NCBI GenBank assembly: GCA_029856045.1
Contig: JAHQWG010000050.1
Span: 1 to 64,000 of the forward strand
Direction of reading: 5' to 3'
Source: Promethearchaeia archaeon
Lineage (GTDB): Archaea; Asgardarchaeota; Lokiarchaeia; Sigyniarchaeales; SOKP01
DNA length: 64,000 bases
Shown here: positions 50,313 through 55,231 of the stretch, one piece after another
How positions within the stretch are numbered: position 1 is the stretch's first letter
Layout: every line of letters starts with the position of its first letter
The notes under the pieces: model-generated
Database searches by the model: none
Told to the model about the DNA's origin: nothing
Seen by the model: the letters and a program-made list of their open reading frames with translations, nothing else
Translations under genes and position numbers: made by a program

Positions 50313-50921
50313 TTGCCTGTTATGATAGAATGGATAAATTTCATTTCATTGATTCTCAGCGCACTTTTTTTTTGCTATTTTTATACATTAAGCGTCCAAC
50401 CAATGAAAAGAAAGGAAAAAAGGGGTGAACAAGCGTGGAAGGATTGCAAGATTTTGCGATCTTTAGCAGGACTTTTTGAATTCATTACTATCGTTAATAT
50501 CTTGCTCTGGGTATGGTTTCCGATTCCTTCATTAAATTGGATAATACATCAAAATATTGGAGTGGGTATAGGTATATGCATTGCGATTGTTGTTCCTGGT
50601 TTTATAATTATTTTTAAAGGCATAAAAGATGCTGGTTTCGAGTCTTTACGTCCATTAGGAGAAACAGAAATGTTTGGGGGTATATATAATTATATCCGAC
50701 ATCCTCAAACACTCGGAGAATTCCCAATTTTCATTGCAATTGCCTTTGCCGTCAATTCATGGTTTCTCGTATTGTTGATGTCTGTATTAGTTGTAATATA
50801 TACTCCAATTATGATTCATTATGAAGAAAAAGATCTCATAAAACGTTTTGGAGATAAATATCGTGAATATCAACAACGGACAGGTGCTTTATTCCCAAAA
50901 TTTTGGCATAAATCTGAATAG
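50313..50921 (+). CDS. Isoprenylcysteine carboxylmethyltransferase/PEMT-family membrane protein
   Basis: GIY.YIRHPQ, EE..L..RFG..Y.EY...T. Confidence 0.85.
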   Translation: MPVMIEWINFISLILSALFFCYFYTLSVQPMKRKEKRGEQAWKDCKILRSLAGLFEFITIVNILLWVWFPIPSLNWIIHQNIGVGIGICIAIVVPGFIIIFKGIKDAGFESLRPLGETEMFGGIYNYIRHPQTLGEFPIFIAIAFAVNSWFLVLLMSVLVVIYTPIMIHYEEKDLIKRFGDKYREYQQRTGALFPKFWHKSE

Positions 50922-51057
50922 ATTTTGAGTATAATGACGATTTCTTTCAATCCTTATATAATGTAATGACAATAGTTACATCTAATAAAGTCAGATAGAA
51001 AAAACTATAAGAAAATGTAATATTTTAAAATATTTTTATAATTTATAATCAAGGATG

Positions 51058-51068
51058 TTATATTTAAA
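51058..51068 (+). promoter_or_regulatory. TATA box of the leader peptide/cysteine synthase transcript
   Basis: TTATATTTAAA about 20-30 nt upstream of ATG 51088, consistent with a leaderless mRNA. Confidence 0.5.
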
Positions 51069-51087
51069 CTCATATTTTAATAATTTA

Positions 51088-51156
51088 ATGAGATTTAGAC
51101 AACAGAATCAACCAAATTCTTATTTCTGTAACTGTTGTAGGGATTGTTGTTGCTAA
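51088..51156 (+). CDS. Cys-rich leader peptide MRFRQQNQPNSYFCNCCRDCCC (putative attenuator uORF)
   Basis: 6 Cys in the last 9 codons, about 100 nt upstream of cysteine synthase. Confidence 0.8.
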   Translation: MRFRQQNQPNSYFCNCCRDCCC

Positions 51157-51258
51157 AAACAACACCTCACATATTCTCATACATCCATCATACTCCTATA
51201 ATTATAACGGTATTATGGTGGCTAAATTTATTGATAATAAATCCTTGAGGTAAAAAAA

Positions 51259-52272
51259 ATGACTATATTTGCAAAGATAAGTAAAAAACTGAATGTAAGC
51301 ACAAAATCTCAGTTAAGAGTTTTTGAAAGTATTGAGGAGTTGATTGCAACTCCAGAGAATCCAACCCCCTTAGTTAGATTAAGTGAAAGATTTAATCCGC
51401 ATAGAAATTTCCCAATATACCTTAAATTAGAGAGATATAACCCATTCGGATCTATAAAAGATAGGATTGCCCTCTCAATGTTAGAAGGAGTTAAGATAAA
51501 AGAAGATCAATACATAATTGAACCTTCATCGGGTAATACCGGTATTGGTTTATCAGCTCTTGCTAATGCGAAGGGTATTCCAATAGAAATAGCAGTCCCT
51601 AGTAGAATCCCTGAAGAAAAGAAGATACTATTAAGGTTATTAGGAGTTAACAACTTGTGGGAAGCAGATGATGATTTATGCCCATCATTCCCAAATGAGG
51701 GAGCAAGGGGTTTAGTGAATGGGATAATGAAAGGTAAGCGAAGAAAAAGATTTATTAATCCAAATCAATATGAGAATCATTTAAACGTTCAAGCACATTA
51801 TAGAACTACAGGTCCAGAAATTTGGGAACAAACTCAAGGCAAAATTGATTATTTTTTTGGTGCTCTCGGAACTGGCGGTACAATAACAGGAGTCGGAAGA
51901 TATTTAAAGAAAAGAAATCCTTCAGTGAAAATCATAGGTGTTGAACCAGCTAAAGCAGAGCACAATTTACCTGGAATGAAGAGAATATCTGATCTTACAG
52001 AAGAATTGAAACCAAAAATTTTAGATTATTCTATAATAGATCAAATCTTGGAAGTTGAAGATGATGATGCGTACCTAACAGGAATCCAATTAGCAAGAAA
52101 GAATGGTATTCTTGTTGGCCCCACTACAGGTGCTTTATTATTCGTGGCAATAGAATATGCAAAAGAACACAGTGGATTAGCCGTAGTAATTTCTCCAGAT
52201 GATGCTATGAAATATATAAGTGCTTATGCACCTTATGTAAGGGAAGATGGAATTCCCAAGTTTATGAGCTAA
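51259..52272 (+). CDS. PLP-dependent cysteine synthase family protein
   Basis: TPLVRL, KLERYNPFGSIKDR, EPSSGNTG, NQYEN, GTGGT; SD TGAGGT at 51246. Confidence 0.9.
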   Translation: MTIFAKISKKLNVSTKSQLRVFESIEELIATPENPTPLVRLSERFNPHRNFPIYLKLERYNPFGSIKDRIALSMLEGVKIKEDQYIIEPSSGNTGIGLSALANAKGIPIEIAVPSRIPEEKKILLRLLGVNNLWEADDDLCPSFPNEGARGLVNGIMKGKRRKRFINPNQYENHLNVQAHYRTTGPEIWEQTQGKIDYFFGALGTGGTITGVGRYLKKRNPSVKIIGVEPAKAEHNLPGMKRISDLTEELKPKILDYSIIDQILEVEDDDAYLTGIQLARKNGILVGPTTGALLFVAIEYAKEHSGLAVVISPDDAMKYISAYAPYVREDGIPKFMS

Positions 52273-54415: not shown

Positions 54416-55231
54416 ATGGTTAAAATGAATTATAAAGAACGACAAGAAATTATTGCAAATTCCAATATTTCATCTGATTATTTACAAAAGTTTAACAGGA
54501 ATATGGGAATTCTTCATTTGATACAAGGGATACTAATGCTAACTGTAGGTCTTATTTTGGAGTTCTCTAGAGATATTTATACTTTTTACTTGACTTATGA
54601 ATTCACTCCTCCCGATATTTTCAATATTTATCCCAATCCTGAAGTGATATTCACAATTTCATATTTTGGAGCTATTTTAGCTTCATTCTTGTTATTGTCC
54701 GCGGTAGCCCATCTCCTTATTGCCTATCCATTAAATAAGAGATATAATGAAAATCTAAAGAAAGGATTCAATCCTTATCGTTGGTATGAATATGCATTCT
54801 CTAGTTCGATTATGATAACTTTTATTTCGTTGCTTTTTGGTGTGTGGGATTTATGGTCTCTGGTAATGATTTTTGTCTTAAATGCCACGATGATAATGTT
54901 CGGTTATGTAATGGAATTAGTTAATCAATATACAGAGAAATTAAATTGGAAGCCATTTATAATGGGATGTATATCTGGAGCAATTCCTTGGATTGTGATT
55001 TTAGGATACTTTTATGGCGTAGACGCTGAAGGAATGCCTGATTTTGTATACGTAATTTTCTTTACATATTTAGTTCTATTTAATACATTTGCTATAAACA
55101 TGGTTCTTCAGTATAAGGGAGTCGGTCCTTGGAAAGATTATCTTTTTGGTGAACGCGTATATATAATATTAAGTTTGGCAGCTAAATCATTGCTGGCATG
55201 GTTAGCCTTTGCAGGTATTTTACAACCATAA
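54416..55231 (+). CDS. heR: Heliorhodopsin
   Basis: LHLIQG, SAVAH, NPYRWYEYAFSSSIM, GERVYIILSLAAKSLLAW (retinal-binding Lys). Confidence 0.95.
   Translation: MVKMNYKERQEIIANSNISSDYLQKFNRNMGILHLIQGILMLTVGLILEFSRDIYTFYLTYEFTPPDIFNIYPNPEVIFTISYFGAILASFLLLSAVAHLLIAYPLNKRYNENLKKGFNPYRWYEYAFSSSIMITFISLLFGVWDLWSLVMIFVLNATMIMFGYVMELVNQYTEKLNWKPFIMGCISGAIPWIVILGYFYGVDAEGMPDFVYVIFFTYLVLFNTFAINMVLQYKGVGPWKDYLFGERVYIILSLAAKSLLAWLAFAGILQP

Follow-up and report, generated by a model that had tools for sequence, protein, structure and literature searches.

A conserved cysteine-rich upstream ORF in Lokiarchaeia as a candidate leader-peptide attenuator of a cysteine synthase gene

In a lokiarchaeial genome of 3.34 Mb and 29% GC, a gene of the cysteine synthase family is preceded by a short upstream open reading frame (uORF) crowded with cysteine codons, and the question raised by this arrangement is whether the uORF senses cysteine and controls the gene. 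The locus lies in the window analyzed here, a 64,000-nucleotide stretch of contig JAHQWG010000050.1, and its features are listed in Table 1. Six Cys codons fall among the last nine codons of the uORF, at positions 14, 16, 17, 20, 21, and 22, giving it the highest Cys count per 10 residues of all short ATG-ORFs in the genome. The Cys density is far beyond chance (binomial p 1.8e-7, rank 2 of 1047 short ORFs), and the peptide had no Pfam match. The first-pass annotation had placed here a Cys-rich leader peptide combined with an anti-Shine-Dalgarno (anti-SD) switch, and the motifs on which it drew, namely, the uORF, TTTAAA, ACCTCA, AACAACACCT at 51158-67, and TGAGGT at 51246-51, were all present.

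Table 1. Features of the cysteine synthase leader and gene (coordinates refer to the window)
Feature	Position	Strand	Remarks
TATA-like box	51058..51068	+	20-30 nt 5' of the uORF ATG; TTTAAA at 51063-68
Cys-rich uORF	51088..51156	+	22 codons, 6 of them Cys, from codon 14 on
Region 1, uORF start, 5' strand of helix P1	51088..51095	+	
P3 hairpin, last Cys codons and stop	51139..51167	+	51145-51 with 51158-64; extension 51139-41 with 51165-67
"Anti-SD" ACCTCA	51164..51169	+	present, not conserved
Region 3, post-stop segment	51172..51180	+	ATTCTC invariant; pairs with region 1 or region 4
P4 hairpin	51185..51221	+	51185-92 with 51214-21; AACCA/TGGTT in homologues
Region 4 within weak AU hairpin beside the SD	51226..51242	+	51232-39 can pair with region 3 instead of region 1; homologues have AGAATT
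Shine-Dalgarno GAGGT of the synthase gene	51247..51251	+	at -12
PLP-dependent cysteine-synthase-family gene	51259..52272	+	337 aa; sole CysK/M-level match in this genome

The synthase scored 254 bits against TIGR01136 (cysKM), under the curated cut-off of 344, and its best PDB matches were O-acetylserine sulfhydrylases. It belongs to a subfamily of about 63-71% identity that was matched in 11 of 400 genomes of the phylum, this one included; its protein homologues carry archaeal labels (Promethearchaeota, Lokiarchaeota, Thorarchaeota) and also bacterial ones (Deltaproteobacteria, Planctomycetota), from which a lokiarchaeial origin of the window is deduced. Orthologues of about 70% identity adjoin genes for PAPS reductase, sulfite reductase, and TusA, which points to a biosynthetic direction of the enzyme. 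Since cysE was found neither in this genome nor in four of five other leader-bearing genomes, we infer the substrate and, strictly, also the direction. No SepCysS above the cut-off was present in this genome, which encodes CysRS and tRNA-Cys(GCA). The tRNA-Cys(GCA) gene (L134:1569-1643, contig C51) lies directly 5' of cysS on the same strand, and no Cys uORF was found before cysS in this genome. The GATCACCTCC tail is present in the 16S rRNA gene, and genome-wide the SD-like motifs are most frequent at -15 to -12, so the GAGGT before the synthase gene is a credible SD. Directly 5' of the leader, in this lineage only, lies a gene for a PEMT-family membrane methyltransferase (50313-50921, +), whose product has weak similarity, below the cut-off, to the methanethiol S-methyltransferase MddA. 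A heliorhodopsin gene (Pfam PF18761, assigned on the equivalent gene) is located at 54416-55231 (+).

Homologous leaders were found upstream of members of the same cysteine synthase subfamily in Lokiarchaeia, giving a set of 18 distinct but related sequences with some near-copies. Their uORFs have 20-26 codons with 4-8 Cys, the cluster begins at codon 14-17, internal stops are absent, and the uORF stop sits 102-115 nt before the synthase start. A covariance model recovered the leader once each in 9 of 135 genomes of the family, and a second copy in none of the genomes searched. In eight of these genomes the synthase gene follows, and in the ninth the contig stops within the first codons of the gene; every downstream gene that was readable belonged to the same subfamily. 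The neighborhoods differ by lineage, with PEMT, ArsR/DUF2769/SBF, a tRNA-Thr editing domain, a histone, and other genes at the flanks, which assigns the leader to the synthase and not to a neighbor. The proposal of a Cys-rich leader peptide as a cis regulator of the Asgard cysteine synthase is thus well supported by conservation, and the search among orthologues yielded the conserved Cys uORFs that this proposal predicts, though not an anti-SD covarying with the SD.

The leader was not found before other cysK/M paralogues, cysE-cysK operons, or operon-internal orthologues of bacteria or of another Asgard family, and loose DNA patterns run over the genomes of the family and the order returned mostly chance matches and no new leaders. 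Three Lokiarchaeia orthologues (L043, L033, and L034) have no leader; these genes are divergent from tusA and located upstream of a second cysK, with an Rrf2 regulator beside tusA in L043, and transcription-factor control has possibly replaced the leader there. On the gene tree, where the leader was scored for the rows with DNA, its presence requires two changes, and a single origin is also compatible. The copy in this genome is the most divergent of the set. At its nearest relative (L121:1-2700), two extra genes followed by an apparent degraded copy of the PEMT 3' end lie between PEMT and the leader, and the promoter and leader are intact. In L065 (2354-2507) the leader is intact as far as P4 and then fused into the synthase coding region, its second half and the normal gene start being absent, by deletion or assembly error.

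Signs of translation were seen in the reading frame itself. The ATG of the uORF is invariant, and the variable codons 4-14 contain an in-frame stop in none of 17 distinct sequences, while the two alternative frames are interrupted in 16 and 14 of them; no stop occurs among the 67 different codon states, with a rough P of 0.006 given that the sequences are related. The Cys codons of the homologues (94 TGT and 14 TGC) interchange. The number and spacing of Cys residues vary, which speaks more for a sensor of codons than for a motif that binds metal. A TTTAAA-type box occupies the equivalent place in most homologues, and TTTA[AT]A shows a weak genome-wide peak at -33 to -25 before start codons. 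The position of the box would suit a transcript that is leaderless or close to it and whose start is predicted. An in-frame ATG at 51055, located 5' of the TATA-like box, would give a uORF of 33 aa, and in 9 of the 18 leaders an in-frame ATG or GTG occurs at -33/-36 with the frame open through the box. The longer form was rejected as the conserved one, given in-frame stops in that stretch in 6 of 18 homologues; the 51055-51087 stretch may be part of the promoter element or belong to a lineage-specific longer uORF.

Helices were sought as all pairings kept across the leader alignment. P1 joins nt 3-11 of the uORF with a segment about 12-22 nt past its stop, over 9 bp in the homologues, and that segment has an alternative partner further downstream, a look-alike of the uORF start, with which it forms helix 3:4. 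The alignment cells were paired in 95.7% for P1, 95.6% for P4, and 92.6% for the 3:4 helix, compared to 29-54% in slid controls. An internal hairpin of the homologues, P2 (84.9% paired, two pairs changed on both sides), is missing in this lineage, and P1 in this genome is reduced to 6 bp plus a mismatch. One pair of the 3:4 helix was changed on both sides. The P1, P4, and 3:4 columns are mostly invariant, and 159 of 500 shuffles scored as high as the three pairs changed on both sides; to judge from the alignment, complementarity is conserved and covariation is thin. Against background short ORFs, the duplex between uORF start and post-stop segment ranked by strength within the top 2% in 16 of the 18 leaders and only within the top 13% in this genome, where the whole-leader folding z-score was -1.1 (homologues, -0.7 to -4.0). 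The pairing probability in this sequence was 0.99 for P4 and 0.05-0.27 for the 3:4 helix. Of the two small hairpins that the first-pass annotation had drawn between anti-SD and SD, the motifs of both were found, including TTTATT at 51227 and AATAAA at 51236; the first one, as it was written, contains a C.U mismatch, and its preferred conserved register is that of P4. Apart from one chance match (E 3.8), the leader was unmatched in Rfam; a search for bacterial-type intrinsic terminators gave 0 terminator-like sites, and the alignment showed no conserved pairing of the Cys tract with the SD region.

Folding was repeated with ribosome footprints as constraints, in which the tallies for P4 and the 3:4 helix are approximate because a few rows were mis-anchored. 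In the ribosome-free state P1 dominated, with a mean of 0.80, and when nt 1-15 were blocked region 3 moved from P1 to its downstream partner (0.53-0.58). One stalled ribosome left P1 largely intact at equilibrium, so the model needs queuing or kinetics. In the queued state the opening energy of the ribosome-binding site (RBS) changed by a mean of -0.4 kcal/mol, falling in 13 of 18 leaders and rising in 3, this genome included. Effects on the RBS in equilibrium folding were thus small and of mixed sign, and folding with footprints fixed neither the direction nor the output of the switch.

On this evidence, the leader quite probably acts in cis as a leader-peptide attenuator through which the cysteine synthase gene responds to cysteine. 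Translation of the uORF would begin at or close to the 5' end of the transcript. With ample Cys-tRNA, ribosomes would clear the uORF, P3 and P1 would fold, the uORF start would be locked and region 3 occupied, leaving region 4 and its U/A-rich flank free to exert a negative effect, and expression would be off. Under a shortage of Cys-tRNA, one ribosome would stall on the Cys codons and a second one would queue on the 13-16 preceding codons, for which a footprint of about 27 nt suggests that there is room; region 1 would then be kept covered, region 3 would capture region 4, and expression would be on. For the negative step, the chance is not far below even that FttA/aCPSF1, the archaeal homologue of eukaryotic CPSF73, terminates transcription prematurely in the untranslated pyrimidine/U-rich stretch, and masking of the RBS by the hairpin beside the SD is a possible step that we would not favor. 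Termination is slightly more likely than masking for two reasons: FttA/aCPSF1 is encoded in this genome and binds and acts on U-rich nascent RNA (PMC11616081), and the 3:4 helix of a Leu leader described below is too far upstream of the start codon to mask the SD directly.

A blind scan for enrichment of single amino acids in 1047 intergenic short ORFs behind TATA-like boxes, in which gene function was ignored, placed a Trp-rich ORF before trpB2 at rank 1, the Cys uORF at rank 2, and a Leu-rich ORF before leuS at rank 7. Ranks 3-6 were Phe, Lys, or Pro runs, among which only the Phe-rich ORF at rank 3 was checked; it precedes glycerate kinase, and was rejected as a leader and taken as an AT-rich false positive. 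In the Trp leader (L130, G000:C27:116858, +), a 25-codon uORF with 5 Trp codons lies 186 nt before trpB2 and its 5' end is complementary to the post-stop segment, as in P1. The Leu leader (L131, G000:C27:38779, -) has a 26-codon Leu-rich uORF 190 nt before leuS. A second copy of the uORF start occurs further downstream, a U7 tract lies between the two copies, and a single post-stop segment is complementary to each of them. A 34-codon His-rich uORF precedes hisC (L132, G000:C36:46786, +), and no P1-like duplex was found in it. That uORFs with cognate downstream genes head a ranking made without regard to function speaks for amino-acid leader peptides as a general device of the organism. Tentatively, Lokiarchaeia may run a set of Cys, Trp, Leu, and His leader peptides that share the toggle between uORF start and look-alike and have premature termination by FttA/aCPSF1 as their output, a reading that we do not regard as the probable one.

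Other explanations of the locus were weighed against the attenuator. The leader could be an untranslated structured 5' region under the control of a protein or ligand, with UGU repeats kept for pairing and the frame incidental. The excess of TGT among its Cys codons (87%, compared to 73% genome-wide) and the pairing of the last Cys codons in P3 agree with this, and, as triplet repeats slip by threes, retention of the frame inside the repeat proves little. Outside the repeat, however, the invariant ATG and the avoidance of stops by codons 4-14 in one frame only speak for translation, the first Cys cluster shows TGT/TGC exchange although it lies outside P3, and a known RNA family was not matched in Rfam, which together make an untranslated leader very improbable. 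We consider it nearly as doubtful that selection acts on the peptide product, made together with the synthase as a micropeptide that binds metal or arsenite or stores thiol. Such a role would suit peptides with 4-8 Cys each at a locus that in many g11 genomes follows ArsR, DUF2769, and an SBF-family transporter; yet the Cys residues vary in count and spacing, conservation in the N-terminal half is limited to the parts that form RNA helices, the leader is kept with the synthase where ArsR genes are absent, as in this genome, and the Trp, Leu, and His uORFs each stand before a gene for their own amino acid.

The third explanation is the direct toggle of the first-pass annotation, in which ACCTCA pairs with the SD once a ribosome opens the stop-codon hairpin. 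The duplex is present in the minimum free energy structure of this sequence (-8.5 kcal/mol) and its SD is of the genuine type for this genome, but the anti-SD is absent from the other 17 homologues, the closest included. L121, which falls in the same 90%-identity protein cluster, has ATTCAT at the site of ACCTCA and independent changes in the SD region, and its duplex is worth -0.5 kcal/mol as against -8.5 kcal/mol here; the P3 extension is altered there on both sides, and the changed bases covary with uORF codons 18-19, not with the SD. The duplex between post-stop segment and SD reaches -1.4 to -5.9 kcal/mol in all other homologues, and 16% of dinucleotide shuffles contain by chance a hexamer that is perfectly complementary to the SD window. 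The predicted sign is also opposite, as stalling raises the RBS opening energy from 1.8 to 4.2-6.9 kcal/mol and would turn the gene off. For this genome, the stall is predicted to hide the SD, not to expose it, which is the wrong sign for a biosynthetic gene. The ACCTCA:TGAGGT switch, confined to this genome and replaced or lost elsewhere, is hence a most unlikely basis for the conserved control, and the duplex may modulate this one lineage.

With the attenuator as the preferred reading, the leader was compared with known systems. The trpL, hisL, pheL, thrL, and leuL leaders are the classical bacterial leader-peptide transcription attenuators, and the Asgard leader resembles them in the cluster of cognate codons in a uORF before a biosynthetic or synthetase gene and, by prediction, in mutually exclusive helices; in contrast to them, it has no GC-rich terminator hairpin with a U-tract and no Rfam match, and it would be read from a TATA-type promoter by archaeal RNA polymerase. 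It is closer in outline to the mycobacterial polycysteine leaderless sORF attenuators of the Ms5788A type, sharing a short, putatively leaderless, transcript-first ORF that ends in a Cys tract and precedes a cysteine-related gene without an intrinsic terminator. In the Ms5788A type it is the SD region of the following gene that the Cys tract binds by base pairing, and the control was shown to be translational (bioRxiv 10.1101/834739), whereas the Asgard Cys tract pairs with bases after its own stop and the conserved toggle uses the uORF start. The host here is an archaeon, and the likeness is taken as one of design. Predicted Cys leader peptides of Actinobacteria likewise have Cys runs near the stop upstream of cys/cbs genes and no terminator hairpin, and Rho factor-dependent termination was suggested for them (PMC1262725). 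The Asgard leader shares the Cys-codon run near the stop and the missing terminator hairpin and differs in its conserved helices and in its candidate factor, FttA/aCPSF1 in place of Rho. Since both the pairing of the tract with the SD and the terminator features failed, it was filed under neither the mycobacterial nor the trp/his-type attenuators. General features of leader-peptide attenuators were found, namely, a conserved uORF of cognate codons placed directly upstream of a gene of the cognate metabolism, a gene that scores below the cysK/cysM cut-offs.

The remark of the first-pass annotation that attenuation is little documented in archaea held: no report of amino-acid-sensing leader-peptide attenuation in an archaeon was found in the literature searched, which lay largely outside subscription journals. 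The locus very probably represents a known kind of control that was found described only in bacteria and is here carried by an archaeon, as far as its sequence can tell. An element of 200 nt is small enough to be transferred to a reporter in a tractable archaeon. Exclusion between FttA and the ribosome has been stated as a hypothesis (PMC11616081), and a natural compact attenuator would allow a test of whether ribosomes in archaea decide what becomes of the transcript that they follow. It would also allow a test of whether uORF-based amino-acid sensing was already present in the archaeal relatives of eukaryotes. If the wider set of leaders with FttA/aCPSF1 output proves true, ribosome-mediated attenuation would in these organisms be coupled to a eukaryote-like transcription machinery.
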